DNA from: a plasmid
Strand: one strand, 5' to 3'
Length of the DNA stretch: 64,000 nucleotides
Sequence record: NZ_CP137560.1
The notes beneath the pieces are model-generated. The model had not been told where the DNA came from, searched no databases, and saw only the letters and a program-made list of their open reading frames with translations. The translations under genes and the position numbers were made by a program. Below, one piece after another: positions 1 through 55,362 of this stretch. Every line of letters starts with the position of its first letter. Positions within the stretch are counted from its first letter, which is position 1.

Positions 1-919
1 TGACCCGTTGCTTGCCAAAGCCACTCATTTGAGCATATAGATAGGTTCCTTTCTTGACCGTAAGGTTACCTATTTCAATGTCATCCAACAGGCGAAGACG
101 GACGCGACTTCCATCCACGGCTTTCACATCTTCATCAATAATGGCGGAAATGAGCTTGGTTTTTCCCTTTTCCATACCCAAGGTATTGAAATACTCAGAT
201 ACCTCCTTGGTCTTCTTTGCAACTTTTTGAGGTTTCTCCTCATCTGTTTCCTTGCTCTTTGGATATGGTGTATTTGTATCCATGCTTTTTCCCGATTGAT
301 ACGTCTGTTCTCGTTTGAAAGTCCCTCTATCATATTTGTCTGCCACATGGCTTGGATAGTTCTGTTCATCCAGTTCAGAATTGGTATATCCGGCTAGGTT
401 CCGATTCATTTCCTCCCATTCTCTGTTCCTGCGTTGTCGCTGAAGCCTTGCGATTTCAGAGTCACTTACAGGAGCTACAAACTCATTAGAGGATGACGAA
501 TTTCGGCTTGCATTTTGACGAACCTTATTCTGCATGGCACGAAGTTTCTTCAGTTCTTCCTGTTCTGCCTGCTGTTGCTGGATAAGTTCAGCCTCCTTCT
601 CGTTATATTGACTCTCATAGTTTTCCTTCTTATTGACGGAATCACGGTCGTTTTCAACACTCTCAATACCGGAGAGGTCTGTTATCTTACCATACTGTCG
701 CTCCGTGTTATCCATCTTGCTACCAAGCAGTGAGTCTGTCTTGGCATCTGGAAGCGCACTGGATAGGTAGTCCGTGGTCTTGAGATTGGCATTGCCTGTA
801 TCCTTAATATCCAAGTTGAAGGTATCGATTACGAAATATCCCACGAAGAGAGAAAGTACGTAAACAAGAAGGGGCATCCAATACTTTCCTTCCTTAAAGT
901 TTATATTCTTAACTTTCAT
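1..919 (-). CDS. traM: Conjugative transposon TraM-like protein, C-terminus cut by window start
   Basis: Reverse-strand ORF starts at ATG 917-919 (MKVKNINFKEGKYWMPLLVYVLSLF... with an N-terminal TM). It runs off the window and lies downstream of traK/traL in a CTnDOT-like order. Confidence 0.65.
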   Translation of the reverse strand, partial: MKVKNINFKEGKYWMPLLVYVLSLFVGYFVIDTFNLDIKDTGNANLKTTDYLSSALPDAKTDSLLGSKMDNTERQYGKITDLSGIESVENDRDSVNKKENYESQYNEKEAELIQQQQAEQEELKKLRAMQNKVRQNASRNSSSSNEFVAPVSDSEIARLQRQRRNREWEEMNRNLAGYTNSELDEQNYPSHVADKYDRGTFKREQTYQSGKSMDTNTPYPKSKETDEEKPQKVAKKTKEVSEYFNTLGMEKGKTKLISAIIDEDVKAVDGSRVRLRLLDDIEIGNLTVKKGTYLYAQMSGFGKQRV

Positions 920-933
920 CATTGCAATGCGTA

Positions 934-1254
934 TTAATTGTTATGCTGTGGCTTATGCAAGGCTGAATCTACCTTTTCTACGGCCGTTATTCGTTCATGA
1001 CTTCGTTGCTTGTAAGACTTGACCAGATTCACCACATTGATGGTAAAACATCCAATGACTATGGTAAATACGGTAGCAAGAAATCCAATGCGATGTTTAT
1101 TAGCCGTCATCTGTAGGCGAGCTGCCAAGAAATTGATTCCGGATTTCTCAGCGAATTTCATACCTGCTCGTTTTTCCTTTTCGTAACGTTCCTTATATTT
1201 TGGATCGTCCTTGCTGGGCATTTGCTCGCCCAAGACCATTCTCTTTAAGCTCAT
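934..1254 (-). CDS. traL: Small membrane protein in the TraL position of the tra operon
   Basis: 106-aa ORF with a C-terminal TM helix, tightly packed between traK and traM. Confidence 0.5.
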   Translation of the reverse strand: MSLKRMVLGEQMPSKDDPKYKERYEKEKRAGMKFAEKSGINFLAARLQMTANKHRIGFLATVFTIVIGCFTINVVNLVKSYKQRSHERITAVEKVDSALHKPQHNN

Positions 1255-1272
1255 ATATTTTTCATTTATATG

Positions 1273-1914
1273 TTAGTATTCCGTTTTCTTTTTCTCTTCC
1301 AAGTCCTTGTTCAGAAGCGTTCTCCAGTTGGTAATCAAAATGCCATGAGGATTATTCTCCGTTCGGGGAACTTTCTTCAAGCTGCCAGCAGTCACAATCT
1401 GGCGCATCAGGATATTGGTTCTTCGCTCTATTCTCTGCCTGCCATAGTAGGTGAATGAAAGTGAGTCCTTGTTGAGTTTGATGCTGTCACAGAAAATACT
1501 GCAGATGGTGGAAGTACCAATGAGATTATTGTAGAATCCCTTTTCCTTGAGCGCATTATATTGTGCCAAGCCTGTTTCGTCAATGAGATACATGGCTTTC
1601 TCCATAGTGTATCGAATGTACTTATCGTCAGGAGCGAGCGTAAAGAATAAATGATGGAACATCTCAATATCACTCTTGGCTTCCACTTCAAAGGTCTCTT
1701 CCATGGATGTTTGTCTAACCAACACTGGTACATTTCCATCCAGCACATATACTTTTTTATGGGCATCGCTGACCATGCCTCTGGCTATGATGATGCTGCC
1801 CAAGCTGATGACGATACAGCCCATGAGAAAAAGGCTGCTGATGATCATCACCATCTTAATTTTGTTTTCTACGTTTTTTAATACTGCCATAATAGTATTT
1901 TCGTTATTAATCAA
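1273..1914 (-). CDS. traK: Conjugative transposon TraK-like protein
   Basis: 213-aa ORF with an N-terminal TM, 3 bp downstream of the traJ C-terminal fragment. Size and position match TraK of CTnDOT-family elements. Confidence 0.65.
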   Translation of the reverse strand: MINNENTIMAVLKNVENKIKMVMIISSLFLMGCIVISLGSIIIARGMVSDAHKKVYVLDGNVPVLVRQTSMEETFEVEAKSDIEMFHHLFFTLAPDDKYIRYTMEKAMYLIDETGLAQYNALKEKGFYNNLIGTSTICSIFCDSIKLNKDSLSFTYYGRQRIERRTNILMRQIVTAGSLKKVPRTENNPHGILITNWRTLLNKDLEEKKKTEY

Positions 1915-1916
1915 AT

Positions 1917-2223
1917 TTATCCCTTTGGTAATAGGCTCATGGCACTTTGCTTGGCCGACGCAGCCACACCCTCACCGAAATTTCTGGTACTGAAGGCTGT
2001 GTCACTTTCAGGAATCATCCAAGCTGCCAGGTCTGGAACCAGGTTCAAGCACTTCAGCGAGACAATTGATGCCACAAGTAAATAGCCGCAAGTCATAAAG
2101 GCATTATGAATGTAGCCTGTCATCTCACCCTTACCAGCTGTTATCACGGTTAAGTTTTCCACCTGAACGCTGATGACAATGTCAAAAAGCAGAAGGACAT
2201 AAAAACCTACGAAGTAGAGGATA
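1917..2223 (-). pseudogene. traJ: traJ C-terminal fragment, left junction of the IME-A insertion
   Basis: Encodes ...LYFVGFYVLLLFDIV...GEGVAASAKQSAMSLLPKG*. The shared LYFVG peptide continues the traJ N-fragment at 20118-20861. Sequence upstream of 2224 is element DNA. Confidence 0.65.
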
Positions 2224-2348
2224 TTATGGCATAAAACAAAGTCGTAATAAATCAAAAGAAACACACGTTATCCAATTGATACACAGATACTTCTTTGATT
2301 TGATTTCTTTTATTTCCTTGACTGTTAAAAATCTATTTTTGGTGCATT

Positions 2349-2370
2349 TTTGTTGCACGTTTGTTACGCG
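2349..2370 (+). repeat. 21-bp direct repeat TTTTGTTGCACGTTTGTTACG, copy 1 near the IME-A left end
   Basis: Identical 21-mer at 20064-20085. Copy 1 overlaps the -33 region of a TAACTTTG (-7) promoter upstream of int at 2454. Confidence 0.6.
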
Positions 2371-2453
2371 AAATAAAATAATCTTTATAACTTTGACCTC
2401 AGAGAAACCCGAATGGGGGCATAAAATAGAAACAAATAAAAGCATATAACAGC

Positions 2454-3620
2454 ATGGGAAGACAAAAGAAAGTATCAAAACCAAAAGAGCCTGTTCGCAT
2501 TCGTCAGCGCAAGTTGAAGAATGGAAATATCAGCCTCTATCTCGACATTTATTCAGATGGTATCAGAAAATACGAGTCGCTGTCGCTCTACCTCGTTCCT
2601 GAGAAAGACCCGATTTCAAAAGACCAGAACAGACACGCTATGCAGGTGGCAAACAAGGTGAAGTCAGAAAGAATATTGGGGCTGCAGAACCGTGGCATCA
2701 AACAATGGGAGAAAATCAAGCAGGAGAATATGCCACTGCTGACTTGGCTCTGCAAATATGAGCAGTCGGACGGCAACTTTGCCAAATCCACATTGAAAGG
2801 CAGAAAGGAGATGCGCCACAAGATAGAACAGTACCTTGCCACGACTGGCGACATCAATATCTGTTTGTCAGAAATAGATGTGGATTTCTGCCGTGGCTTC
2901 GTGAAGTTTTTGAAAACGGCACATCATGGAGTGAAGAAAGACGCTACAGCTGTAATCAGTCAAGGTTGCGCCCATCATCATCAGGCGGTATTCAATGGAG
3001 CGTTGAACAAGGCGGTGCGTGAGGGTATCATAGCAAGCAATCCAATGAAACTGTTGGATGCTAAGGAGAAGCATCAGCCAGCCGAAAGCGTAAGAGAATA
3101 TCTGACCATTGACGAGTTGAAAGCCATTATGAAAGCGGACTGCGCCAACACGGAAGTAAAAAAGGCTTTTATCTTCTCTTGCTTTGCAGGATTGCGCTTG
3201 GGAGATGTACGTGCGCTCACATGGAACAAGGTGTTTCTCGCATCTGACGGAAAGACAAAATTTGTCCGCACGATCATGGAGAAGACAAACAAGCTCGTTA
3301 ATGTTCCACTATCAAAAGAGGCTCTGAACTGCCTTAATGAAAAGGAAGACCCGAACGAGCCGATATTCACTTTGCCAGGCACTCCAACGGTATGTCACGA
3401 CATCCGTAAATGGATGCAAAATGCTGATATTAAAAAGCACATCTCGTTTCACTGCTCACGGCACACCTTCGCCACGATGATGCTGACACTTGGAGTTGAC
3501 ATCTATACAACAAGCAAATTATTGGGGCATAGCAATGTCTCTACAACACAGATATACAGCAAGATAGTGGACGAGAAAAAAGTGGAGGCAGTCAACAAGG
3601 TTGATAATCTATTTGATTAG
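2454..3620 (+). CDS. Tyrosine site-specific recombinase/integrase, first of a tandem pair
   Basis: 388 aa. N-terminus MGRQKKVSKPKEPVRIRQRK..ISLYLDIY is conserved with 21086 and 53830(-). C-terminal HxxR...Y catalytic region (HCSRHTFAT...LGHSNVSTTQIYSK). Confidence 0.9.
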   Translation: MGRQKKVSKPKEPVRIRQRKLKNGNISLYLDIYSDGIRKYESLSLYLVPEKDPISKDQNRHAMQVANKVKSERILGLQNRGIKQWEKIKQENMPLLTWLCKYEQSDGNFAKSTLKGRKEMRHKIEQYLATTGDINICLSEIDVDFCRGFVKFLKTAHHGVKKDATAVISQGCAHHHQAVFNGALNKAVREGIIASNPMKLLDAKEKHQPAESVREYLTIDELKAIMKADCANTEVKKAFIFSCFAGLRLGDVRALTWNKVFLASDGKTKFVRTIMEKTNKLVNVPLSKEALNCLNEKEDPNEPIFTLPGTPTVCHDIRKWMQNADIKKHISFHCSRHTFATMMLTLGVDIYTTSKLLGHSNVSTTQIYSKIVDEKKVEAVNKVDNLFD

Positions 3621-3644
3621 CACTAATAAAAAAGGTAACTGAAA

Positions 3645-4799
3645 ATGAGTATAGAGATAAGAACAAGAGTGTTAAAAAATGGTAGTCAGTCGCTATACCT
3701 TGACTGCTATGAGAATGGTAAAAGGGAATATGAGGCATTGCATTTGTACCTTATTCCAGAGGTGAACGAAGACGCAAAGCGAGAGAACAAGAACGCCATG
3801 AAAAAGGCGGTCGCTATAAAGGCTGAAAGACTCCTTGGTATTCGTAAGGAGGCAAAGTCTCCAGATGAAACGGCATTAAGAAAGGCATCGCCTGTTTTCT
3901 ATGAATGGCTGCTTGATTATCACAAGGGATTGATTGACAGCCAAGCGTATTCTCAGAACTACATCAAGAATGTATGGAAGCTGATAGCCATCATGCACCA
4001 ATATATGAAATACAGCCATAAAAGTGGCATACGATTGATAGACTTCAATAAAAACGTATATATGGGCTTCTTGAACTACATGAGGGACATCTATGTTTCG
4101 CCAAAGTCTCCAAGCAACCCTCAGAAGTTGGCACAGTCCACCATGCACCAAATGCAGACCACACTCAACACCATATTGAACAAGGCGGTCAGAAACGGTC
4201 TGATAAGTGCAAATCCTTTTGCTTCATTGGATATAAGGGAAAGGGTCAGCAAGGCAGAAAGTAATATCGTTGCATTGACAAAAGAAGAGGTCATGTCATT
4301 GGCTTCCGTAGAAACAGGCAGTCCTGCAACTAAACAATGTTATATGTTCTGTTGCTTTACAGGTTTAAGACATAGTGACATATCCAACTTAAGATGGAAG
4401 GATATTCGCCAAACTGATGCGGGATTGGCTATCTATCTGCCTCGTATGCAGAAAACCAAGCACCCCATTCTGATACCATTAGGCAAAAAGGCATTGGAAT
4501 GGTTGCCCGACAGGGAAGATAAAAGTGAAGATAGCCTTGTGTTTAACACACCGCAAATCTGCAACTGTGACAGAGCCCTGAAACACATGGCAAAACGAGC
4601 TGGCATTACAAAGGTTCTCGGATTTCACACAAGTCGGCACACTTTTGGAACATTGGCTATCCTCGCAGGATGTGACATCTTGACTGTGAGCAAACTATTG
4701 GGTCATAAAAGTGTTAAGACAACACAGATATATGCTTCCGTAGCCATGCAGATGAGAGCGGATGCCGTTAAGCGAGTGGAAAAAGTATTTGGAAATTAG
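3645..4799 (+). CDS. Tyrosine site-specific recombinase/integrase, second of a tandem pair
   Basis: 384 aa with SLYLDCY..LHLYLIP N-domain and C-terminal HTSRHTFGT...LGHKSVKTTQIYAS. Confidence 0.9.
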   Translation: MSIEIRTRVLKNGSQSLYLDCYENGKREYEALHLYLIPEVNEDAKRENKNAMKKAVAIKAERLLGIRKEAKSPDETALRKASPVFYEWLLDYHKGLIDSQAYSQNYIKNVWKLIAIMHQYMKYSHKSGIRLIDFNKNVYMGFLNYMRDIYVSPKSPSNPQKLAQSTMHQMQTTLNTILNKAVRNGLISANPFASLDIRERVSKAESNIVALTKEEVMSLASVETGSPATKQCYMFCCFTGLRHSDISNLRWKDIRQTDAGLAIYLPRMQKTKHPILIPLGKKALEWLPDREDKSEDSLVFNTPQICNCDRALKHMAKRAGITKVLGFHTSRHTFGTLAILAGCDILTVSKLLGHKSVKTTQIYASVAMQMRADAVKRVEKVFGN

Positions 4800-4965
4800 G
4801 GAAGAAAAGAAAGGGAGTAAGGAGGATAAAATCTCTTTATTCCCTTATTTCGTATCAAATGGGTGTAAAAGTGTGAAATATCGTTATATTTTTGCCTATT
4901 AGAGCCACATAACGAATTATTATCGCAAAATTTAATGTATATTTGCAGTAAAATTCGGTGAAAAT

Positions 4966-5172
4966 ATGAAACTGAACAGAATAAAAGATACGTTGGAAGA
5001 AAAAGGCATCTCTCAGACATGGCTTGCAAAACAGCTTGGGAAGAGCTTTAGTACAGTAAACTGCTACGCCAGGAATAAATACCAGCCAGATTTGGAAACA
5101 TTGCTTGAAATATCCAAAATTCTACAAGTCGATTTGAAGGACTTGATAACAGACGAGGACGAGCGAGAGTAA
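4966..5172 (+). CDS. XRE-family HTH transcriptional regulator, candidate controller of the R-M operon
   Basis: 68 aa with ISQTWLAKQLGKSFSTVNCYARNKYQPDLETLLEISKILQV, a Cro/C1-type HTH. It ends 60 bp upstream of hsdR. Confidence 0.7.
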   Translation: MKLNRIKDTLEEKGISQTWLAKQLGKSFSTVNCYARNKYQPDLETLLEISKILQVDLKDLITDEDERE

Positions 5173-5232
5173 AAACGCCAAATGCTGGATTTTTAGAACT
5201 GGACAAAATAACTTCCGATAATAAAACGTTAT

Positions 5233-7635
5233 TTGAACATGGGCATAAGCAAAGAACTTACAGAAGAGGACATCAAGTTCCGCTATATCAACGAAGCCAT
5301 CACAAGCAAGGGATGGTCAAAGGATAGTATATTCATGGAACAGAAGGTTAAATTTACTGACGGTAAAATTAGCCTTCATGGTAATCTTGTGCATAGAGAG
5401 AAACCGAAGTTTGCCGACTATGTACTTTATGCAAATAAGGCAACACCCATTGCTATTGTAGAAGCAAAGGATGCCAATCATTCTGTTTCTCATGGATTGC
5501 AACAAGCCATGACCTATGCCCAAATGCTTGATGTGAAGTTTGCATACAGTTCAAATGGTGAAGGTTTTGCCGAACATGACTTCTTGACAGGCAGGGAACG
5601 CACTTTTGCTATGAACGAATTTCCAACAAAAGAAGAACTTGTCGAAAGATATAAAAATGAGGCTAACGATGGAAACGGACTTAACGAACAAGAGCTGGCT
5701 ATTATAGAGCAGCCTTTTTGCACTGGTCAGAATATATTTCCGCCACGATATTATCAGCGCAATGCAGTAAACCGCACAGTTGGTGCCATTGCCAAAGGAC
5801 AAAACCGTGTGCTCCTTGTCATGGCAACTGGCACAGGCAAGACATATACTGCATTTCAGATTGTATGGCGTTTGCTTAAAAGTGGTTTGAAGAAGAAAGT
5901 GTTGTATCTTGCAGACCGAAACATATTGGTTGACCAATCCATACAGCAGGATTTCAAGCCATTAGAAAAGGTGACACACAAGATTGACTACTCAAAAGAT
6001 AAGAACCACTTGGAAGAACTTGGCTCTTATCAAGTGTTCTTTGCACTCTATCAACAGTTGATTGGACAGAATGATGCCAAAAACTATAAGGAGCTGTTTC
6101 CTAATCCAGACTATTTTGACCTTGTTATCGTTGATGAGTGTCATAGAGGTAGCGCAAAGGATGATAGCAACTGGCGAAACATCTTGGAATACTTTTCTTC
6201 GGCTACTCATATAGGTATGACTGCCACACCTAAAGAAACAAAATATCAGTCAAGTATTGGCTACTTTGGTGAACCAGTCTATACTTACAGTCTTAAAAAC
6301 GGAATTGAGGACGGTTTCCTTGCTCCTTTCAAGGTTATCAACATCACAACGAACATCGGTGACGAGTGGAGACCGACAAAGGGACAAAAGGATATATACG
6401 GCAACGAGATAGAAGACCGCATTTATAATAACAGCGACTATGATTATAACATTGTCATAGAAGATCGTATAAGGGAAGTTGCGAAAGAGATAACCAACTA
6501 TCTGAAAAGTACAGATCGCATGGCTAAGACCATAGTGTTCTGTGCTGATGAAACTCATGCGGAACGTATGCGTATGGCTTTGGCTAATGCCAATGCTGAC
6601 ATGTGCAAGAAAAATCCCGACTATGTGGTTCGTATAACTGGTAGTGACGAATACGGAAAAGGCAAGTTGGATTATTTCATTTCTGTTGCCGAGAAATATC
6701 CTGTCATAGCAACTACAAGTAAGTTGCTTTCAACAGGTGTTGATTGCAAAATGACAAAACTGATTGTGCTTGACCAACAAATCGGCTCTATGACAGAGTT
6801 CAAACAAATAATTGGTCGTGGCACTCGTCTTCGTGAGAAAGAAGGAAAGACATACTTCACAGTAATGGACTTCCGCAACGTAACACGATTGTTTGCTGAC
6901 CCTGATTGGGATGGACCGATTGAGATAGACCCGAATTATCCGCCTAAACCACATATTTGTCCTGTATGTGGACAGAATCCATGCGTGTGTCCCAAACCGA
7001 CACCAGAACCCTGCCCAGTATGTGGTCAGATACCATGTATTTGCCAACAACCGCCCAAACTGCCTAAGCCAATAGTCAACTCGGACGGTTGTACAGTAAA
7101 GGTCATTAACAAGGTCGTTTCTGTCTATGACACAAATGGTAAGTTGCTTCGCACGGAAAGCATTACCGACTATACAAAGAAAAGTATCATAGACACATAC
7201 GCTACGATTGATACATTCACTTCCAAGTGGCAAGAAACCAAGAAAAAGTCAGATATTGCTGAAATGCTTAAAGACAGTGGTATTGATCTTGCAGCATTGA
7301 AGCACGACCAAGACATGGACGATGTGGATGATTTCGATTTCATCTGCCATATAGCCTACGGCAAGAAAACACTTACACGACATGAGCGTGCCGAACAAGT
7401 GAAGAAACGAGACATATTCAGCAAGTATGGTGAACAGGCACGACTTGTGCTTGAAGCCCTGTTGGATAAGTACACCAAGGAAGGTGTGTCTGAATTGGAA
7501 AGCCTTACTGTGCTTGAAAATGACCCATTCCGCAAATTGGGCTCAAAGGCAAACATCGTGAAGTTCTTTGGTGGCAAGCAAGGCTATCTTGATGCCGTAA
7601 AGGAACTGGAACAATACATATATAATATAGCATAA
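5233..7635 (+). CDS. hsdR: Type I restriction enzyme R subunit
   Basis: 800 aa. N-terminal PD-(D/E)xK (ADYVLYANKATPIAIVEAKD). Helicase motifs LLVMATGTGKTYTAFQ (Walker A) and DLVIVDECHRG (DEAH). Unusual Cys-rich CPVCGQxPCxC x2 insert near the C-terminus. Confidence 0.93.
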   Translation: MNMGISKELTEEDIKFRYINEAITSKGWSKDSIFMEQKVKFTDGKISLHGNLVHREKPKFADYVLYANKATPIAIVEAKDANHSVSHGLQQAMTYAQMLDVKFAYSSNGEGFAEHDFLTGRERTFAMNEFPTKEELVERYKNEANDGNGLNEQELAIIEQPFCTGQNIFPPRYYQRNAVNRTVGAIAKGQNRVLLVMATGTGKTYTAFQIVWRLLKSGLKKKVLYLADRNILVDQSIQQDFKPLEKVTHKIDYSKDKNHLEELGSYQVFFALYQQLIGQNDAKNYKELFPNPDYFDLVIVDECHRGSAKDDSNWRNILEYFSSATHIGMTATPKETKYQSSIGYFGEPVYTYSLKNGIEDGFLAPFKVINITTNIGDEWRPTKGQKDIYGNEIEDRIYNNSDYDYNIVIEDRIREVAKEITNYLKSTDRMAKTIVFCADETHAERMRMALANANADMCKKNPDYVVRITGSDEYGKGKLDYFISVAEKYPVIATTSKLLSTGVDCKMTKLIVLDQQIGSMTEFKQIIGRGTRLREKEGKTYFTVMDFRNVTRLFADPDWDGPIEIDPNYPPKPHICPVCGQNPCVCPKPTPEPCPVCGQIPCICQQPPKLPKPIVNSDGCTVKVINKVVSVYDTNGKLLRTESITDYTKKSIIDTYATIDTFTSKWQETKKKSDIAEMLKDSGIDLAALKHDQDMDDVDDFDFICHIAYGKKTLTRHERAEQVKKRDIFSKYGEQARLVLEALLDKYTKEGVSELESLTVLENDPFRKLGSKANIVKFFGGKQGYLDAVKELEQYIYNIA

Positions 7636-7649
7636 AATAGAAACAAAAT

Positions 7650-46697: not shown

Positions 46698-46706
46698 ATA
46701 TTCCAA

Positions 46707-47111: not shown

Positions 47112-47169
47112 TAATAGAAATCGCCTAACTTTAAGTGCAAACTTAATGTTAGGCAGTAACTCGTCTATC

Positions 47170-47772
47170 TCATATATAGTTCTGTGCAATTATCATTCCA
47201 ACACCTCCTGCAACAACAAAGATACCAATCGTGAAGAAAAAACAAAAGAACCATTGTGCATAGTGACCGAGATAGCAACCATCATATTCCTTGTAGCGTT
47301 CACGGACTTTCTTCCGTTCATCGGCAAACATGGAATTGACCTCACGGATATGCATCTGCATCTGTGCGGTCATCCATTGGCGTTCTTTGGCAAACAGTTC
47401 TTGGATTTTCTGCCAGTCAGCATCATTGACATTTACAGACACCTTTAATTTAGTGGAAGCATTCTCCAAGACCTTGTCTATGTGCTGATTGATGGTATCT
47501 ACCTTTTTGCCGATGGTAGTCACAGCACCACCCAATTGAACTTCCGAACGCTGATACTGCTGAATGGCAGACTCCAGTTCAAGTGTGGCATTGATGAAGG
47601 TGTCGGTTGCCTTATCAATGTCCTTACTCAACTGCTTCAACTCAGGAACACGGTTTACAAGTCCGTCTTCGGCTTGCTGTTCCTCGACCTCGTTTTCGAC
47701 ATCATTCATCATGTTGTCGAAGTCGGATCTTTCTTCTGTGTCTATGTTTATCTTGCTTTTTCTGATTGCCAT
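47170..47772 (-). CDS. mobC: MobC-like mobilization protein with a C-terminal TM
   Basis: 200 aa, homolog of 30157-30777. Confidence 0.6.
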   Translation of the reverse strand: MAIRKSKINIDTEERSDFDNMMNDVENEVEEQQAEDGLVNRVPELKQLSKDIDKATDTFINATLELESAIQQYQRSEVQLGGAVTTIGKKVDTINQHIDKVLENASTKLKVSVNVNDADWQKIQELFAKERQWMTAQMQMHIREVNSMFADERKKVRERYKEYDGCYLGHYAQWFFCFFFTIGIFVVAGGVGMIIAQNYI

Positions 47773-47784
47773 ATTGTTATTGAT

Positions 47785-49017
47785 TTATCGGTGGAAACTT
47801 CTACTGCGTGGTTTAGGCTTGCACATGGAATGAGCCATCTGTGCGCAACGGTGGGCAAACTTCCAGTCATCTTCATCGTCTTTCTTTCCCCAACCAGATT
47901 CAGGAGAAGAACCGCCACCGCCACATGACTCAGACATGGAAGTGGCTGCATCAATGTACCCTGCAAACAACAGCATTGCTACATGAGCGACATTCTCCGT
48001 TGTCGCTATATCATTATCCTCTGGAATCTGAGCCTCATTAGTAAAGACATCTTTGACAGAGTTCGGAATCCACACCTTCTTGACTCCATCGCCAATGTTA
48101 ATTTGGAATGCTGTTTTTGAAGGTTGAACTTGTGCCTTTGGTTGTGATGCTGTTGAAGTCTGAGCGACAGGACGAACTGGGCGAGGCGTTGAAGCAACGG
48201 ATGGTGAAACAGGCTTTTCCTTGACCTGTGTAGGTTGTGGGTGCAGTTTCTTCCATGTGTCTTCAATCTTTGACACCATGTACTTTCTGCCAATCTCAGA
48301 AGCCTTGAACACGGAAGCGTTCTTGCCGACTGTATAGCCGACAAGTTTCCGCTGCTTGTCGTAACGAGGTTTAACCTCATAGCCTTTCATGCGCAACAGA
48401 TTGAAATATCTGTCAATGTTGAACTGCTGCATATCTTTGAGGATATGTTCGCAATCCTCCGCAAGTTCAGCCTTTCGCATATTCCGAATCTCCTGCGGTT
48501 GTTCCCATCCATGGCGCTTATTGATGATTTCCGCAGCCTTCATTGCCCGAAGGTGAATATCGTGTACATCATTGGTCTTACCCTCCATATCCACACGACA
48601 ACAATCAATGTGAAGGTGCAGCATTCCAGACTTGGAATCAGAGTGCAGTCCGCCCACATTCATAGAATTGGTGAAGTTGGTCTTTATTTCATTGGAGAAA
48701 CCGTTGGGCGAAAGTCCAACAGAATCCAAAACTCCCAATGCTTCGTCTTGGAGGTTTGCCCAATCTGCCATCGTGAAGTTTGCAGACTCTTCCTTTGATG
48801 GGGAAAGTACAAAAGTGGTCATGAACCTTTCCAACTTTCTGCCAACCGTCCTTTCCGCCTGATGATACTGGCAATGATGCTTCATCATGTACCAGATGGC
48901 GGTAGGGTCAAGACCATCGGGCATGTTGTTCACCTTGACCGTCTTTGCCTTCTCCTTTTCCAATGCGTACCTTACGGAATTGCCTCCATACGATACGACC
49001 TTTGCGAGCATAATCAT
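47785..49017 (-). CDS. mobB: Relaxase/mobilization nuclease (MobB type) with a poly-Gly/KKDDEDD tail
   Basis: MIMLAKVVSYGGNSVRYALEKEKAK..., HxH (MLHLHIDCCRVD), C-terminal SESCGGGGSSPESGWGKKDDEDDWKFAHRCAQMAH. Confidence 0.85.
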   Translation of the reverse strand: MIMLAKVVSYGGNSVRYALEKEKAKTVKVNNMPDGLDPTAIWYMMKHHCQYHQAERTVGRKLERFMTTFVLSPSKEESANFTMADWANLQDEALGVLDSVGLSPNGFSNEIKTNFTNSMNVGGLHSDSKSGMLHLHIDCCRVDMEGKTNDVHDIHLRAMKAAEIINKRHGWEQPQEIRNMRKAELAEDCEHILKDMQQFNIDRYFNLLRMKGYEVKPRYDKQRKLVGYTVGKNASVFKASEIGRKYMVSKIEDTWKKLHPQPTQVKEKPVSPSVASTPRPVRPVAQTSTASQPKAQVQPSKTAFQINIGDGVKKVWIPNSVKDVFTNEAQIPEDNDIATTENVAHVAMLLFAGYIDAATSMSESCGGGGSSPESGWGKKDDEDDWKFAHRCAQMAHSMCKPKPRSRSFHR

Positions 49018-49424
49018 GATTGTTCCTTTGATTTTGTCTGTACGTTTGTTGCGATATTCTCTTCAATGCTATACCAATGTTGGATAAGTCCTGCAACGGC
49101 ATCAATCCACCAACGCATGAACTTCTCATTCTTGAAGAACCGAGCCTTTTCCTCAGCCGTTTTCTTGGATAGCACGTTGCTGATTTTTATCAAATCCGTC
49201 CTTGCGATGGCGAGAGAGTTGAGAGCGTCCACCTCTTCCTTGGTGAGCCTCATGCGTGGACGGTGCTTTAAGCCAGTCTCAACGACATAGCGGCTCAGGC
49301 TTAACCCACACTCCTTGGCATGTGTCTGGAGACGTTTCAATTCCTCTTCCGTGCATCGGTAGGTATGGACTTCCGTAGGCGGTTTTCTTATGATGTTCTT
49401 CTTTCTCATTTGTTCTTGTCTCAA
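49014..49424 (-). CDS. mobA: MobA/MobC-type relaxosome accessory protein
   Basis: 136 aa, homolog of 31979-32380. Confidence 0.65.
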   Translation of the reverse strand: MRQEQMRKKNIIRKPPTEVHTYRCTEEELKRLQTHAKECGLSLSRYVVETGLKHRPRMRLTKEEVDALNSLAIARTDLIKISNVLSKKTAEEKARFFKNEKFMRWWIDAVAGLIQHWYSIEENIATNVQTKSKEQS

Positions 49425-49503
49425 ATTAAAATGGGATGATTACAAGCATCTTACAAAGGTGGTCACGACTGCGAGCCTGCGAGTAGTCCGAGAAACTTTT
49501 AGG

Positions 49504-49534
49504 AATACAGAAAGACGGACACGGCTTCTGTATT
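49504..49534. other. Candidate oriT hairpin AATACAGAA-(13 nt)-TTCTGTATT upstream of mobA (IME-C)
   Basis: 9-bp perfect inverted repeat. The conserved GCGAGCCTGCGAG is at 49471-49483. Confidence 0.4.
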
Positions 49535-49694
49535 ACAAAAGGATTTCTCGAAAAGTACCTATAAAATGACGGCACTTTTAACAGCCTCCGTCCCCAAGGC
49601 TGCTTAAACGTATAACAGTTGGGCGGTAGCCTATGGCGGTTAATCGTCCTTTGGGATGATTTTTATGTATAGTGGCTTATTTGCCTCTGTATGC

Positions 49695-50519
49695 CTATTG
49701 ATTGCCGTTATGGTATTCGTTAGGTTTGTAGCCATTGGCATTAGAACCGTTCGACTGTTGTGTTTGACCTCCAAACTGATGCTGTGGATATGTGTTGTGC
49801 TCTCCCTCATTCTGTTTGGCATCTGCTTCTTGCAGGGAAGAAGGATTGCCAACAGACTGTCTGGAGTAGTTTTGCTGTGGAGAAATTCCACCAGTAATAG
49901 CATCGGAAAGATTGCCATTAGTTCCGATCTTACCCACGCTTCCATTATCATTAGATGAAGCCGAATTTAGGGAAGAAGAAATATCTGCCGTAGAAGAATT
50001 GCCCTTTTTGTCTGTATCGGATATTCCATTGGAAAAATGCCCATCTTCCTTGTCCGACTTTGTATCAACCCCCGTTGTCGTAACAATTACTCTTACTTGT
50101 GGAACTTCCGTGTGGATGATTGCAGAGCCATCAGTATTGCGCTTCAATGAAAATCCGTTCTTGAAAAATCTTCCGTCCACATACCAACCAGAGAGGGAAT
50201 GCAGGGTAATGATGCGGTTGTCTCCAACTTTTTGTGAAGAGGAAATCCCCACAGCCTCCATAGCCTGTAAAAGTTTGGGTACGGTCTTGCGGTCTTTATC
50301 CCAGAGTTTGGCAAGTTGGGTATTGTCAACCATACATTGCCCACACAAGATTTCCACTTGTTGGGTCTTGCTGATAGGTACAAGTGTTGTTTCACGTTCG
50401 GCAAGAGAGGCAAGAGACATGAAGCATTCCATGCGGTCAATCTTGTACTTCTTGCAGCGAAGATACTCCATCTGTACATCGGACAGCGTGAAGTAGTAAT
50501 GTATCTTTTGTTTATCCAT
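49695..50519 (-). CDS. IME HTH-domain protein (paralog family) with a long Ser/Asn/Gly-rich tail
   Basis: LAKLWDKDRKTVPKLLQAMEAVGIS HTH. Homolog of 18410-19066 and 32552-33202. Confidence 0.5.
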   Translation of the reverse strand: MDKQKIHYYFTLSDVQMEYLRCKKYKIDRMECFMSLASLAERETTLVPISKTQQVEILCGQCMVDNTQLAKLWDKDRKTVPKLLQAMEAVGISSSQKVGDNRIITLHSLSGWYVDGRFFKNGFSLKRNTDGSAIIHTEVPQVRVIVTTTGVDTKSDKEDGHFSNGISDTDKKGNSSTADISSSLNSASSNDNGSVGKIGTNGNLSDAITGGISPQQNYSRQSVGNPSSLQEADAKQNEGEHNTYPQHQFGGQTQQSNGSNANGYKPNEYHNGNQ

Positions 50520-50583
50520 CTTCTGTAAATTTTGAATATTATAACCATAAATGGCAAGACTGTTTTTCTCAGTAAAGAGAAAA

Positions 50584-50901
50584 TCATCTGTGCCGTCCTC
50601 TCCTTGGGGAAATGTCCTCTGCTATAACATAGAGCTCGCCTTGCAACCTGTCATTAGAATGGCTGCTTAATCGTGAAATGCACTCAATGCAGACAGACTG
50701 GGCAAGAAGTTTTCTTCTTCCGACAGTTGCTTCATCATTGATGCCCTTGTTGGCTCCGCATTGTTCGGCAAGCTGATTGAAAGCATCACGCATCCGAAAG
50801 TAGCCGTTGCCAGTATTGATGTAGCTCACGGCAAGGTCAGCGACATTCGCCAACTTGCTTCTGTACTCCTCATGGGAAATATCGTCCTTCATCATCGCCA
50901 T
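50584..50901 (-). CDS. Small conserved IME protein of unknown function
   Basis: 105 aa, positional homolog. Confidence 0.45.
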   Translation of the reverse strand: MAMMKDDISHEEYRSKLANVADLAVSYINTGNGYFRMRDAFNQLAEQCGANKGINDEATVGRRKLLAQSVCIECISRLSSHSNDRLQGELYVIAEDISPRRGRHR

Positions 50902-50903
50902 GT

Positions 50904-51221
50904 CTATTTACAAAGTTCACTCATGTGCTTGGTCGCTGCAGCCTTGGTCTCAGCCTCGGACATACTGCGGTTCTGGCGCATCCAGTTCAAAAGTTCGGAC
51001 TTCTCAAAGTAGATAATCTTGCCGTTGGGACGGAAGAACGGAAGTTCATGCTTGTGTGTCATCTTGTAGAGACTACTCTTTGATATACCCATGAATAAGG
51101 CTGCTTCCTCCAGTGTCAATACTTGCTTGGCATCACGGAGTAGGTTCTCCATTATCCCAATGCGGTGCTCATGTGACTCTACCTTCAAGAGAAGAGTCTC
51201 GGTGTCGATAGTTTTGTTCAT
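50904..51221 (-). CDS. Excisionase-family HTH protein (xis-like)
   Basis: LTLEEAALFMGISKSSLYKMTHKHELPFFRPNGKIIYFEKSELLNWM. Confidence 0.75.
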   Translation of the reverse strand: MNKTIDTETLLLKVESHEHRIGIMENLLRDAKQVLTLEEAALFMGISKSSLYKMTHKHELPFFRPNGKIIYFEKSELLNWMRQNRSMSEAETKAAATKHMSELCK

Positions 51222-51360
51222 TATCCTGTAATTTATTGTTTGTAATTCGTTGTACTGCTTGTTTTGAAAGTGTAGTCCCCCAAGACAGAGAGAATTCCCT
51301 GCCCGAAAAATGGGGACTACAAAAGTGAAATTTACTGGTTGTTATCCTGAAAAGTTCCGT

Positions 51361-52626
51361 TTACTTGTTATCCTGTAAAAAAGTTATTCTGCGTGGATGG
51401 GTGTTGGTGGCTGCTGTCCGCTTTGTCCTCGGTATTTGCTTGTTCTCCTCACGCTGTTTGCGACCTCGAAAGGCTTTCTTCGTGTTGTCAACAGCCTTGA
51501 CCTTTTCATTCGTCAGCACATCTGCATAGATGGCGGTGGATTTGAGCGACTTGTGTCCCATCAGTTTCTTGGTAGTCTCAATGTTGCCGGTAACCGCCTG
51601 CACCAAAATTCCGAATGTATGTCGGGAACAGTGAAAAGAGATATTCTTCTCAATGCCCACCTTTTTGGCTATCCTTTTAAGGGCAGCATCCACATTAGCC
51701 TTAGCAGGAAGGTGGAACACAAAATCATCATCACCTTTGGGTGGCATCCATGACAAGGCGGTATTGCCGATTGGTACGGCATTGAGAGCCTTTGTTTTCT
51801 TTTGGACGATTACAAGCGTGTTCGTTTCCTTGTTTCTCTTGATGTCACTCCACCGCAGAGCCTTGATGTCGCTTATACGAAGTCCTGTCAGACAGGCGAA
51901 ACCGAAAGCCTTTTGTGTCTCTGCAACTCCTGGACTTCTCTCATCTGAAGCCATGAACCTTTTCAGTTCATCGGGAGTGAGATACTGCTTATGTGATGAC
52001 TTTGGCTTGGGAAAGATGTCAGACTTCTCCAACAGGTAGAAAGGGTTAGCCTTCAATTTACCGAACTTGACAGCCTTGTTGAATACCGCCACTGTGCGCT
52101 GTTGAACATTGTGAAGCGAGCCTTCACACAAAGGCTTGGCTTCAACTCGTACATACTTCTGTGGTACATAGTCGTTCTTCAGCCAAAGGAAGAAAGCCTT
52201 GAACCATTCCTTGTCGAACTTCCTCAGAGTGATGTGAGGTCTGCGCTTGTTGGCAAGGAACTCGCTCATTAGGTATTTCAAATACTTTGACTGGTCAACA
52301 ATAGCCTTGGAGTAGTCTGTATTGTCGCTCATCCAGTCGATGTAAGTCTGGATCCAGTCCATGACTTCGGGAGACTCGTCATTGGGGATTTCCTTCACAA
52401 TCATCAAGTGACCTACCTCTGGGATGGTCTCTGGATGAAGAATACGCTCTGCCCTTATCTGGTGAGCACGTTGCAATGTTTCTTCGTTTCTTGCTTTGGT
52501 CTCTGCATCAACCTCTGGCAACAAATAGAGAGAAAGAAATTCAAACTTGCGCTTGCCACCATCGTAGATGTCAAGATACAAGCTTATGTTGTCGTTGGCA
52601 AGTGCCTTTTGTCTGATAGTTATTGT
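51361..52626 (-). CDS. Tyrosine integrase, second of a tandem pair
   Basis: Start taken at MTITIRQKALANDNISLYLDIYDGG. C-terminal HCSRHTFGIL...LMGHKSLKSTAIYAD. Confidence 0.85.
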   Translation of the reverse strand, partial: TITIRQKALANDNISLYLDIYDGGKRKFEFLSLYLLPEVDAETKARNEETLQRAHQIRAERILHPETIPEVGHLMIVKEIPNDESPEVMDWIQTYIDWMSDNTDYSKAIVDQSKYLKYLMSEFLANKRRPHITLRKFDKEWFKAFFLWLKNDYVPQKYVRVEAKPLCEGSLHNVQQRTVAVFNKAVKFGKLKANPFYLLEKSDIFPKPKSSHKQYLTPDELKRFMASDERSPGVAETQKAFGFACLTGLRISDIKALRWSDIKRNKETNTLVIVQKKTKALNAVPIGNTALSWMPPKGDDDFVFHLPAKANVDAALKRIAKKVGIEKNISFHCSRHTFGILVQAVTGNIETTKKLMGHKSLKSTAIYADVLTNEKVKAVDNTKKAFRGRKQREENKQIPRTKRTAATNTHPRRITFLQDNK

Positions 52627-52657
52627 CATGTCTATATATATATTCGTTGTCAATGAT

Positions 52658-53830
52658 TTATGTGAACATACCGTCAATGAGGTTTATGGCTTCCTCCTTC
52701 TTCTTATCCACGATTTTAGCATAGATTTCCGTGGTCTGAATGTTGGAATGTCCCATCAGCTTGCTTGTGGTAAAAAGGTCTGCACCGAGAGTGAGCATCA
52801 TCGTTCCGAACGTGTGCCGTGAGCTATGGAATGAGATATGCTTCTCTATCCCTGCCGCTTCCGCCCATTTGCGGAGAGCCCTGCCTATAACGGTCTGTGT
52901 GGTCGGTATGTCAAAGAAAGGAATATCATTTCCTCTTGGCTTTGGCAACCACCGCTTAGCCTCTTCCGAGAGAGGTATTATAACTGGCTTCTCCGTCTTT
53001 TGCATTTCCATGTCTATGTATTCGCCCTTTCCGTCAGCGGTCTTGAAGATGTGCATCGGAGCAAGATGGTACATGTCACTTAATCGCAATCCAGTAAAAC
53101 AGGCGAAGATGAAAGCCTCCTTGACCTCTGGGCGGTAACTGTCCGTAGCCATGAGGGTACGAAGTTCCTCAATGGTCAGATACTCTTTCTTGCCGTCCTT
53201 GGGCTGAATGCGCTCACGTGCATCAAGTTCTTTCATAGGGTTGTTGCGAATAATGCCTTGTCGCACAGCGTTATTGAGAGCAGTGGAGAACATTCCGAGG
53301 TATCGGCTTGCCGTATTCTCGCTGATTGGTCTTGGCTCGCCATACTTGATATGGGAGTTTGGGAAGTTACGCAAGAACTTCACATATCCACGGCAGAACT
53401 CCGCATTGACCTCTTCAAGCGAAATGAAGCCTTTGTTGGTCTCGTCAAGATACTTCTCCACGGTGTGCAGCATTTCCACACGGCAATGGAGCGTTGACTT
53501 CTTGATGCCGACACCACCTTCACAATACTTCTTTATCCATGTGGTAAGAAGCATCGAGCCTTGTTTTACTGTCTCCCAGTCCTGTATGCCGTGACCATGC
53601 AGGGCTTTGATGCGCTCTGCCTTGATGCGTTCTGCAACTGCCATAGTCTGCTTGTTCTGTTCCTTGCAAATGGGATTGATTTCGGGAACGAGGTAGAGTT
53701 TGAGGTATTCATACTTCCTCACTCCCTTGTAGTAGATGTCAAGATAGATACTCTTGTTGCCATCTGCGAGCGACTTCAACCGAATTTTAATCGGTTCTTT
53801 CAGCTTTACTTGTTTCTTTGGTCTTGCCAT
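52658..53830 (-). CDS. Tyrosine integrase, first of a tandem pair
   Basis: MARPKKQVKLKEPIKIRLKSLADGNKSIYLDIYYKG... C-terminal HSSRHTFGTMML..LMGHSNIQTTEIYAK. Confidence 0.9.
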   Translation of the reverse strand: MARPKKQVKLKEPIKIRLKSLADGNKSIYLDIYYKGVRKYEYLKLYLVPEINPICKEQNKQTMAVAERIKAERIKALHGHGIQDWETVKQGSMLLTTWIKKYCEGGVGIKKSTLHCRVEMLHTVEKYLDETNKGFISLEEVNAEFCRGYVKFLRNFPNSHIKYGEPRPISENTASRYLGMFSTALNNAVRQGIIRNNPMKELDARERIQPKDGKKEYLTIEELRTLMATDSYRPEVKEAFIFACFTGLRLSDMYHLAPMHIFKTADGKGEYIDMEMQKTEKPVIIPLSEEAKRWLPKPRGNDIPFFDIPTTQTVIGRALRKWAEAAGIEKHISFHSSRHTFGTMMLTLGADLFTTSKLMGHSNIQTTEIYAKIVDKKKEEAINLIDGMFT

Positions 53831-53982
53831 GATGTATGAAGTGTTATTTTGTTTTTGTATTCTGCTACATTGGAGGGTCTTTCTCCCTCTTGTTGAAAGT
53901 TCATGTCAGATATGGTTTCCTATGCTGACATTTGCTTTTCTTTCTCTTCCCTTACTTCGGAAAACTGATGTAAAGATAAGAA

Positions 53983-54023
53983 AACAAACCGAGAAACGAG
54001 AAACAAAACGGAAACAAGAAACA
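53983..54023 (+). repeat. Direct GAAAC(A/G)A repeats near the IME-C right end, candidate arm-type sites
   Basis: AAACAAACCGAGAAACGAGAAACAAAACGGAAACAAGAAACAG, about 150 bp inside the junction. Confidence 0.35.
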
Positions 54024-54028
54024 GTCTT

Positions 54029-54469
54029 TTATGTCTTTTTAAGAGTGAGTTTAGCAAACATCGGAAAATTCAAATTGTCGCTTAAAGCATTGATACTTAG
54101 CGCATTTACTTTCATTTGCTTTCTTGTCTTTTCAAACGCATTTTGTAGGACTAAGATATTCTTGACATCCTGCTCCTCGTTGTTCATCTTCACATACACG
54201 GAGATAGCACCGATGATAGCTACGATACCTGCAATGGCATAGCAGAGGTTGGTGACCACAGGCACATACTTCTTCAAGCTATCTGTAGAGGTCTCGATGG
54301 CTGCAAGACCGGCATCCACATTCTGTGCGAAAGTGGAAATAGACACCACCAAGAGCATCATGGTCAACATACCCATGCGTGGGTTAGAAACGAAAGACTT
54401 GGCTTTCTTCACAGTGGCTGTGGCGCAACGTTTTGCGCCGCAAGCCAAATTACTGATTACTTTGTTCAT
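54029..54469 (-). pseudogene. traE: TraE-like (DUF4134-type) paralog whose native C-terminus is at 42318-42402
   Basis: Signal peptide plus ...NLCYAIAGIVAIIGAISVYVKMNNEEQD, then non-homologous read-through into IME-C DNA. The native continuation FKKSIMLIVGACIFL... is found 11.8 kb away. Confidence 0.55.
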
Positions 54470-54530
54470 TGCTAATTGTTTCTTAGATAAAATTAAATGA
54501 TTAATATTGTTTTTAAATGAAAATTGATTC

Positions 54531-54884
54531 TTACCACAAATGATCGGTTACACCATAATGGAAACCGAAGAATGATGGGAAGACCACCGTGGAAACACAT
54601 AGGAAAATCAAACTTCCTATCAGAATAATCACGCTCTTGGTGAATCCTTCCTCTCCAGTTTGCATCTTAATGTAGATGTTGGTAGCACTATAGAGCGACA
54701 GCAAGGTGGCAATAGCGTACATGAGCTGAGCCACGTAGGAGCACATGGTCAGCACATAGGTGACCATATCATATAGCCTTCCGGTATTGCCGCTATAATC
54801 TGTTGTACCACAGTTGGCCATCGCAACCTGAGAGCATAGAAGCATGAGCAGGGCTAATGCCAATAGTCTAAAGTTATCCTTCAT
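54531..54884 (-). CDS. traE: TraE-like (DUF4134-type) small membrane protein
   Basis: 117 aa with a signal peptide and AQLMYAIATLLSLYSATNIYIKM...IILIGSLIFLCVST C-terminal TM. Confidence 0.55.
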   Translation of the reverse strand: MKDNFRLLALALLMLLCSQVAMANCGTTDYSGNTGRLYDMVTYVLTMCSYVAQLMYAIATLLSLYSATNIYIKMQTGEEGFTKSVIILIGSLIFLCVSTVVFPSFFGFHYGVTDHLW

Positions 54885-54888
54885 ACTT

Positions 54889-55362
54889 TTAACCCTCGTT
54901 TATTTGACTGAGTGAACCCAAGATTTCAGAAGAAGTTTCATCAAATTGCTGATGACCAATTTGAAAATCCTCAATAGAGTACTCTTTCTCAGCATCTGCC
55001 TTATATGTTATCATTTCCTCTTTTGCCTTCTCTATCTTTTCATGAAGTTCTGAGGCTTTGAGATTGTTGATTTCTTCTACCGAAGCTTGCGCAAAGGTGT
55101 CCTCTGAATGAGAATCGTTTTCTTGACTTGGAGATTGTTCATCCAAAGTGTTTGTTCCATGCATGAAACTATCCTCATCAACATCCACAGGCTTTTCTTC
55201 TTCCAAAGCTTCCGGAGCTTCCTGCTCCGTAGTATGGATGATTTCCACATCTTCTTTCTTTTCTTTTCGGGATTCCTTATGACAATCAAGAGTAATGATC
55301 ACCACGTAATATCCCAATAAAATGATTGTTGCTACGATAGCAAATATGCCAAATGTTCCCAT
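54889..55362 (-). CDS. Membrane-anchored acidic protein in the TraD position
   Basis: 157 aa with an N-terminal TM (GIFAIVATIILLGYYVVIITL) followed by a D/E-rich region. It is the first gene of the visible tra cluster. Confidence 0.4.
   Translation of the reverse strand: MGTFGIFAIVATIILLGYYVVIITLDCHKESRKEKKEDVEIIHTTEQEAPEALEEEKPVDVDEDSFMHGTNTLDEQSPSQENDSHSEDTFAQASVEEINNLKASELHEKIEKAKEEMITYKADAEKEYSIEDFQIGHQQFDETSSEILGSLSQINEG

Follow-up and report, generated by a model that had tools for sequence, protein, structure and literature searches.

What has happened to a conjugation operon in which all transfer genes but two are intact, and in which these two are split by three large insertions? 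This question is raised by a stretch of 64,000 nucleotides from the plasmid record NZ_CP137560.1 (hereafter, the window), in which the transfer (tra) genes of a Bacteroidota mating-pair formation type B (MPF_B) system lie on the minus strand in the order p157, traE1, traE2, traF, traG, three unnamed genes, traJ, traK, p106 and traM. A preliminary description had read this locus as a transfer-dead CTnDOT-family conjugative transposon that acts as an integration hotspot for three nested integrative and mobilizable elements (IMEs). We consider it very likely that three related, distinct IMEs, here referred to as E1, E2 and E3, entered the tra genes of a plasmid-borne MPF_B operon at conserved coding motifs, through site-specific recombination by tyrosine recombinases. 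What carries this answer is directly observed, namely the exact boundaries and cores of the inserts, their empty sites, their recurrence at the same positions in other operons and their gene content.

To define the inserts, we used two sets of relatives. A TraG scan with one genome per species gave 59 loci, nearly all from Prevotellaceae and with a best identity of 83%, and the contigs used for empty sites are metagenome contigs that encode a TraG protein identical to that of the window. In three of these contigs (L061, L062 and L064), the same backbone, with 99.1-100% nucleotide identity, has all three sites empty and encodes a TraJ of 389 amino acids (aa) and a TraE2 of 129 aa; an intact traE2 is also present in the gene calls of two shorter contigs (L068 and L069). 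The window aligns to L061 in four collinear blocks (58018-54159, 42412-34587, 20838-20146 and 2222-1) whose ends share 16, 7 and 14 bp at the E3, E2 and E1 joints, respectively. E3 alone is present in L060 and L063, L065 bears a different E3-like element, and E2 is missing from L060-L065.

E1 occupies 2223-20159 (17,937 bp) and has the core TACTTCGT at both joints, with the 14-bp overlap at 2209-2222 and 20146-20159. E2 occupies 20839-34593 (13,755 bp) with the core TTGGTGG at 20832-20838 and 34587-34593, and E3 occupies 42413-54174 (11,762 bp) with the core TCAAGAA lying within an imperfect 16-bp repeat (42397-42412 and 54159-54174). In all three cases, the cores in attB, attL and attR are identical while the flanking arms match imperfectly; identical cores of 7-8 bp with imperfect arms are as expected for integration by tyrosine recombinases. 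The E1 site lies in the 3' third of traJ in the sequence encoding YFVG, the E2 site in the 5' part of traJ, at about codon 72, in the sequence encoding FWW, and the E3 site at about codon 101 of the second traE paralog in the sequence encoding EEQDVKK.

As a consequence of the two insertions in traJ, this minus-strand gene is present in three fragments: an N-terminal fragment of 185 nt (34594-34778; 61 codons and two bases of codon 62), which is aligned with the 5' end of the unsplit gene of L001, L002 and L061; a middle fragment of 679 nt (20160-20838), which is 100% identical to L061 (11663-12355); and a C-terminal fragment of 306 nt (1917-2222; 101 codons and the stop codon), which matches the 3' end of the uninterrupted gene in L001 and L061. 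Together, they give 1170 nt, exactly the length of the 389-aa gene in L061. Similarly, the two minus-strand fragments of traE2 are collinear with L061 and add up to 390 nt, exactly the length of the 129-aa gene: the N-terminal fragment has 295 nt (54175-54469) and covers positions 2-70 of the DUF4134 profile (open reading frame (ORF) 54029-54469), and the C-terminal fragment has 95 nt (42318-42412; the last 30 full codons and the stop codon) and covers positions 58-93 (ORF 42318-42578). In comparison with the closest species-representative loci (L001-L003), the rebuilt TraE2 aligns unbroken over the E3 joint with 86% identity and TraJ aligns unbroken over the E1 joint with 91% identity. At the E2 joint, intact TraJ homologues read ...NADFIGSQGPFWW|ILQMCMAL..., and the homology of the window stops at 34587 and restarts at 20838.

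The preliminary description had already placed two interruptions in traJ and one in a traE paralog, and this stands, because intact homologues span the joints and the empty sites exist. E1, E2 and E3 are, however, three separate insertions, none of which lies inside another, rather than nested elements. The ends proposed for E1 (2224-20141) and E3 (42403-54166) were correct to within ~20 bp, whereas those for E2 (21002-34492) were off by 163 and 101 bp because a 15-bp subterminal repeat, CGTTTTTGTCCCTCG (20987 and 34478), had been taken for the att site; we rejected this repeat as the E2 att site because the positions at which similarity to intact traJ stops lie 101 and 163 bp further outward. 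Similarly, the empty-site alleles that had been foreseen do exist, but deleting the intervals proposed at the time frameshifts TraJ in the case of E1 and TraE in the case of E3, while for E2 the deletion is in frame by coincidence only and leaves 264 bp of element DNA.

Gene identities were assigned by ORF calling together with Pfam and NCBIfam family scans. In agreement with the earlier reading, these scans find a common set in each insert, consisting of two tandem tyrosine integrases (IntA and IntB), a helix-turn-helix (HTH) Xis-like protein of the HTH_17 family, a small protein, an HTH-like protein of 216-274 aa and a relaxase. The recombinases have the domains Arm-DNA-bind_5, SAM_5 and Phage_integrase, and the catalytic motifs GLR...HxxRH...GH...Y are seen in all six integrase translations; this architecture is the one described for the IntCTnDOT subgroup (Smyshlyaev et al., PMC8138268). 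Between the elements, the IntA orthologues are 44-50% identical (E1 IntA is 50% identical to that of E3 and 44% to that of E2), the IntB orthologues 33-35% and the Xis-like proteins 46-49%. The relaxase of E1 is of the MobV type (NF041497, E 1.5e-44) and those of E2 and E3, which are 38% identical, are MbpB-like. No type IV secretion system (T4SS) or coupling-protein domain was found among the internal ORFs scanned in E1-E3. Thus, in gene content and in their discrete boundaries, E1-E3 conform to canonical IMEs of one family, and they are predicted to excise as circles and to be mobilized by a helper.

The same sites are occupied repeatedly in other gut Bacteroidales. Among the species-representative loci, the E1 site is occupied in L041 and intact in 39, the E2 site is occupied in L029 and L057 and intact in 40, and the E3 site is occupied in L026, L047, L057, L059 and probably L048 and intact in 37. 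A heuristic count had also scored L021 as occupied at the E2 site, but on inspection this site is intact. In L029, from Leyella stercorea, TraG is just 73% identical to that of the window, and yet a copy of E2 that is 96% identical over 4.6 kb is at the same site; identity is 94-100% inside E2 and falls to 60-80% in the flank at about 34600, the predicted element end. Contexts were also collected from public assemblies by an exact look-up of IME proteins. For E1, all eight contexts with upstream sequence have an identical IntA adjoining the traJ 3' fragment, followed by traK, traM and traN, and the element copies are 97-99.7% identical while their flanks are 67-69% identical. For E2, six of ten contexts are in traJ at the same codon, and for E3, eight of ten interrupt a DUF4134 gene at one and the same codon position, within the stretch encoding NNEEQDVK. 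The assembly blocks with exact matches number 14,526 for the E2 IntA and 46,110 for the E3 Xis-like protein. Near-identical copies at the same codons in backbones that are 60-80% identical argue for site-specific insertion and not for decay of a hotspot. In other words, for each IME lineage there is a separate preferred att site, which lies in a conserved motif of a T4SS coding sequence, and this specificity is strong, not absolute.

Two of the occupied loci hold further variants. In a scaffold of Bacteroides sp. CAG:530 (L057), two tra sites are filled (9206-9508 and 16914-17667); the element in the traE2 site has an end of the E3 type, and that in the 5' traJ site has one of the E2 type. In L041 (7455-11740), the 3' traJ site holds a divergent relative, with Xis-like and small proteins that share 50-53% identity with their E1 counterparts. 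This relative has an E2-type relaxase instead of MobV and, therefore, the target site appears to be older than the mobilization module.

An alternative explanation, and the one favored in the preliminary description, is that a dead, decaying conjugative transposon of the CTnDOT family forms a permissive hotspot in which mobilizable elements pile up. Three insertions within about 52 kb, two essential-looking tra genes that are split, and the presence in E3 of degenerate toxin/immunity cargo and an internally duplicated end would all fit with such decay. However, the backbone is 99.9-100% identical to insert-free copies and the other tra ORFs are all intact, and an otherwise undamaged backbone counts against passive accumulation in a decaying element. 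Moreover, the same nucleotide positions are filled in many diverged, otherwise intact operons, as expected from integrase specificity and not from relaxed selection, and the replicon is annotated as a plasmid. We therefore consider this explanation unlikely. Far less probable still is a multipartite conjugative element that, like the tripartite ICE3 of Mesorhizobium, is reassembled by ordered recombination before transfer. The several recombinase pairs and Xis-like factors inside one conjugation region would be in keeping with this idea, but every segment has its own relaxase and integrase pair, the segments are singly present or absent on the same backbone (L060 and L063 versus L061), and they are also found in unrelated backbones and at non-tra chromosomal sites. 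The joints could, finally, be chimeric joins made during assembly between repeats shared by related mobile elements, given that homologous modules are common to the three elements and that E3 has a 249-bp internal repeat. This, too, is highly improbable: with protein identities of just 33-50%, the modules are too diverged to be mis-assembled, the E3 joint is present in the independent assemblies L060 and L063, the hybrid ORFs are found in clusters of 12 and 37 members, and the fragment lengths sum exactly to those of the intact genes.

Several observations weigh against the targeted integration of IMEs that we prefer, or against parts of it. E2 is found in four of ten contexts at non-tra chromosomal sites resembling ATCCACCAG and E3 in two of ten at non-tra look-alike sites, and the contexts are those on the longest contigs and not a random sample. 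No circular or excised form was found when the predicted E2 attP pattern was searched in metagenome contigs. The intact TraE1 might substitute for TraE2, and the window on its own may fit either a tra system that belongs to the plasmid or an integrative and conjugative element (ICE) inserted in a plasmid.

The class of the operon follows from its families. TraG, a VirB4-type ATPase (39067-41979, minus strand), matches TIGR03783 with 419 bits (E 2.5e-125) as well as PF19044, and TraK (1273-1914, minus) matches TIGR03781 with 262.7 bits; both exceed the cut-offs and, with matches to TIGR03779, DUF4133 and DUF4134, they make up the MPF_B set. The DUF4133 protein is TraF (42008-42307, minus) and the intact DUF4134 paralog is TraE1 (54531-54884, minus). 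TIGR03779 is matched (E 2.8e-24) by the 5' part of traM (1-919, minus), which runs off the window and is collinear with the TraM gene of L060-L067. The assignments made at first for TraG, TraK, the partial TraM, the DUF4133 protein and the two DUF4134 paralogs are thus borne out, while two names turned out to be positional: the "TraD-like" gene, p157 (157 aa; 54889-55362, minus), has no family match, and "TraL", p106 (106 aa; 934-1254, minus), is in the traL position by synteny with L001-L012 and has no match in Pfam or NCBIfam. Split TraJ would be VirB6-like, judging by weak matches to NF046089 and TIGR03782; the weakly TraJ-like ORF (20118-21065) scores 22.7-25 bits against a cut-off of 289.95 bits for the CTnDOT equivalog. 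Between traG and traJ (34806-39134, minus), three genes in conserved synteny in L001-L012 encode proteins of 912 aa, 271 aa and 246 aa (DUF5045) without a match to a Tra family in the family scans, and these unrelated proteins replace TraH and TraI of CTnDOT. Because TraJ is far under the equivalog cut-off and TraH and TraI are replaced, the term "CTnDOT-family" is right only in a broad MPF_B sense. In other words, the MPF_B genes support the assignment as a CTnDOT-family conjugative transposon, but TraJ, TraH and TraI diverge and the replicon is annotated as a plasmid. Also, IntDOT, Xis2c, Xis2d, Exc and RteABC are all absent from the window.

The ends of the elements share further features. 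T-rich subterminal repeats of the TTTTGTYYC type are present ~75-150 bp inside both ends of each IME (E1, 2346-2368 and 20062-20084; E2, 20979-21001 and 34470-34492; E3, ~53980-54010 and 42467-42545) and are candidate arm-type integrase binding sites; the E2 pair is the one that had been mistaken for the att site, and an internal 23-bp repeat of E1 is the counterpart of the 15-bp repeat of E2. The attB of E1 contains TTACTTCGTAG, which fits the TTAC-N5-RR pattern of MTnPi att sites, while ATCCACCAAAA of E2 and TGTCAAGAAGA of E3 fit just the looser xxxC-N5-RR pattern. The E2 att region (34577-34593 and 20832-20838) contains CCACCA-GTAA-CCACCA. Both the window and L029 have the doubled CCACCA copy at the distal joint, and several Bacteroides loci have it at the integrase-proximal joint (at about 4744-4760 in L070, L074 and L077-L079). 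Because the doubled core is found at either joint, strand exchange may occur at either copy. The integrase-proximal 247-bp end of E2 (20839-21065, minus) forms an open frame that runs on, without a shift, into the traJ fragment downstream. One ATG precedes the joint by eight codons and a second lies at 21065; similar 411-aa genes are called in L072 and L073. The possibility that this end restores traJ by supplying an in-frame start was rejected because the fusion is out of frame in the loci with the doubled CCACCA-GTAA-CCACCA joint; the open frame is, therefore, probably incidental.

Excision would be predicted to give the attP joints ...ATCCTCTACTTCGTGGGATT... for E1, ...GGGATAATTGGTGGTTACTGGTGGTTGCC... 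for E2 and ...ACAATCAGCAAGATTTCAAGAATATCTTAG... for E3. Three contigs that match the E2 attP pattern (L090-L092) were rejected as circles because their flank is chromosomal, with genes for a TPR lipoprotein and efflux proteins. They hold an E2-like element, the proximal end of which is directly abutted by a 32-bp copy of the E2 distal end in the flank. This copy may be the scar of an earlier tandem element.

The cargo of the three elements differs, and the cargo types listed in the preliminary description were recovered by the family scans, i.e. a Type I restriction-modification (R-M) system with an inverted hsdS in E1, an esterase/CBM20 protein and a C11 peptidase in E2, and Imm32, RHS and TIR fragments in E3. 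In E1, the plus-strand tandem integrases IntA (2454-3620) and IntB (3645-4799), which have matches to Xer and integron-integrase-type tyrosine recombinases, precede the cargo (4966-15629, plus) with an HTH_3 regulator, hsdR, hsdM, a YhcG nuclease, hsdS (10787-12343) and partial hsdS copies, and with an inverted hsdS (13398-14762, minus) and a tyrosine invertase (14823-15629, plus), as assigned with Pfam. Inverted repeats of 192, 88 and 24-27 nt lie between the hsdS copies. The layout is that of an hsdS shufflon, and this Type I R-M system is predicted to be phase-variable. The YhcG/DUF1016 gene between hsdM and hsdS (9199-10224, plus) encodes a PD-(D/E)XK nuclease, and a related gene is among the cargo of an E2-type element in L070. 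The E1 mobilization module (16699-19784, minus) consists of the genes for the MobV relaxase (16699-18135), the HTH protein (18410-19066), the small protein (19063-19458) and the HTH_17 Xis-like protein (19374-19784).

E2 has the plus-strand integrases IntA (21086-22267) and IntB (22264-23424), matched by Arm-DNA-bind_5, Phage_int_SAM_5 and Phage_integrase, followed by Pfam-assigned cargo (23574-29585, plus) consisting of a serine resolvase, an ORF6N protein, the esterase/CBM20 protein, a 482-aa protein without assignment and a clostripain C11 peptidase. Its module (30157-33958, minus) encodes a 206-aa protein, the MbpB-like relaxase (30741-31964; PF03432; NF041420, E 7.9e-32), the HTH protein (32552-33202), the small protein (33274-33621) and the HTH_17 Xis-like protein (33626-33958). 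In E3, the plus-strand cargo (43025-47111; Pfam) comprises Imm32, an RHS-repeat fragment, a Big_14 protein, a TIR_2 fragment and small ORFs, and the backbone is on the minus strand, with IntA (52658-53830), IntB (51361-52677), the HTH_17 Xis-like protein (50904-51221), the small protein (50584-50901), the HTH protein (49695-50519), a NikA-like protein (49014-49424), the relaxase (47785-49017) and a 200-aa protein (47170-47772). The NikA-like accessory gene is present in E3 only, and the mobilization module in E1 and E2 is inverted relative to that in E3. Primase or Toprim domains were not found in the family scans of E1-E3, in which the 216-274-aa proteins have a weak HTH match or none. The cargo-side terminus of E3 is duplicated as a 249-bp direct repeat (42404-42652 and 45434-45682; 97% identical) that bounds a 3,030-bp integrase-less module with Imm32 and the RHS fragment; the inner copy has an att-like sequence, and the module is also present in the contigs with E3 only (L060 and L063). 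This module looks like an accreted second, reduced element or the result of cassette exchange.

All three relaxases have in common a C-terminal domain of ~80 aa (16699-16950, 30741-30992 and 47785-48036, all minus strand) with the motifs IDAAT, GGGG, W.RDKDED and A.RC..MA, which is kept despite the difference between MobV and MbpB-like catalytic domains. It is a candidate for an adaptor and may connect the relaxases to the coupling protein of the helper element.

The window is a portion of a large plasmid-like replicon of Segatella hominis: proteins identical to those of the window are annotated as "(plasmid) [Segatella hominis]" on a record of 317,413 bp. Among the relatives, L003 is an extrachromosomal element of strain HDE04 that bears the same operon, and related operons are also on chromosomes (L004, L007 and L056). 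A query of a plasmid collection with the tra backbone gave no match. Host backbone continues beyond the operon at 55363-62000, in synteny with L001-L005 (L061 reaches 58018 and L064 reaches 59596), and includes an array of six tRNA genes (57808-58301, plus strand; Ser-gct, Arg-acg, Ser-tga, Gln-ttg, His-gtg and Thr-tgt) with spacers of 4-7 nt. The array region is present in the 99%-identical contig L064, and none of 11 related loci of other species contains any tRNA. Past the operon, there are also a homologue of the DarG-like macrodomain antitoxin (62923-63609, minus; E 1.3e-09) and a weak match to a TnsA-like endonuclease (59912-60748, plus; E 5e-04).

For the targeted integration of E1-E3, we suggest the following model. 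The IntA/IntB pair together with the HTH_17 protein would carry out integration and excision via the 7-8 bp overlap, with the T-rich subterminal repeats serving as arm sites. Once excised, the circular element would gain access to an MPF_B mating pore through the relaxase and its conserved C-terminal domain. As long as the IMEs stay integrated, both TraJ and TraE2 are interrupted; this copy of the pore would be disabled until excision, and this copy of the transfer apparatus is probably non-functional in that state. Recombination at the 7-8 bp cores during excision would rebuild both ORFs precisely. In this way, targeting of tra genes would provide an IME with a conserved landing site and with the guaranteed presence of a helper element. 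More tentatively, and with considerably less confidence, we speculate that tandem-integrase IMEs form a very abundant guild in gut Bacteroidales that is specialised on MPF_B T4SS genes and acts as reversible gates on transfer of the helper. If so, the helper would build its mating pore only after excision of the IME, i.e. exactly when the IME itself is mobilizable, and transfer of the helper would depend on that of the IME and be coupled to it; the adaptor to the coupling protein of the helper would then be the C-terminal domain that the unrelated relaxase types have in common.

The design of E1-E3 has precedents. By description, they are similar to the "tyrosine-duo" mobilizable transposons MTnPi1-3 of Prevotella intermedia (Naito et al. 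2016, PMC4755523; "Tyr duo" in Guedon et al. 2017, PMC5704250), which are also from Prevotellaceae and combine a tandem pair of tyrosine integrase genes with a relaxase, a short att core and accessory cargo that varies. However, MTnPi1-3 are reported to use loose 11-bp targets, TTACNNNNNAA (TTAC-N5-AA or RR), that are scattered over chromosomes, and to have a primase-family gene, while none was detected in E1-E3, the preferred targets of which lie in traJ and traE. Inserts similar to these mobilizable transposons were suspected within CTnPi2 and CTnPi3, one of them with a Type I R-M system, and no att sites were found for them (PMC4755523). NBU1, NBU2 and Tn4555 are Bacteroidota IMEs that, like E1-E3, encode, besides a tyrosine integrase and accessory excision proteins, their own relaxase and are mobilized by MPF_B systems (PMC5704250); unlike E1-E3, they have a single integrase and target tRNA 3' ends (NBU1) or preferred chromosomal sites (Tn4555).

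Integration of IMEs into conjugation genes of ICEs is documented in Firmicutes, as the preliminary description had stated; the 2017 review tabulates IMEs that target conjugation genes or oriT of ICEs for this phylum only (PMC5704250). For instance, Tn6104 and IME_Sco1050 are in traG of Tn5252-related ICEs and IME_oriT is in oriT of Tn916/ICESt3 (PMC5704250). As with E1-E3, a conserved conjugation sequence of a potential helper is the att site and several sites per gene are possible. By contrast, the phylum, mating-pore class, target genes and recombinases differ: the Firmicute IMEs have mostly serine recombinases or a single tyrosine integrase, whereas E1-E3 have a tandem pair of the IntCTnDOT type. 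In a survey of the gut mobilome (PMC6907783), CTnDOT-like elements were noted to contain insertions, most of which lay between operons. Large extrachromosomal elements (LEEs) of the Segatella copri complex are, according to passages of the study that described them, circular replicons of 72-329 kb present in most species including S. hominis (Blanco-Miguez et al. 2023, PMC10635906). The same passages report that LEEs are enriched in integrases and transposases, and the proteins of the window are on a 317-kb S. hominis plasmid; a conjugation operon, or IMEs inside it, is not described in the LEE passages of that paper (PMC10635906). In the literature searched, we came across no account of Bacteroidota IMEs that target traJ or traE. 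Thus, the idea and the element architecture each have a precedent, while their combination, the exact sites and the apparent prevalence are without precedent in that literature.

With these findings, a strategy for which Firmicutes had been the only documented case is seen in a second phylum and with another recombinase architecture. Identical backbones with zero, one and three inserts also provide a clean system for analyzing how two integrases recognize an att site in a coding sequence. Conjugative elements drive gene flow in gut Bacteroidales. If it is true that very common IMEs preferentially split traJ and traE, then many defective-looking "ICEs" may be reversibly gated rather than dead, annotation pipelines for ICEs and IMEs in Bacteroidota should check these three joints, and the spread of restriction, toxin/immunity and surface-hydrolase cargo would be tied to the helper's own transfer.

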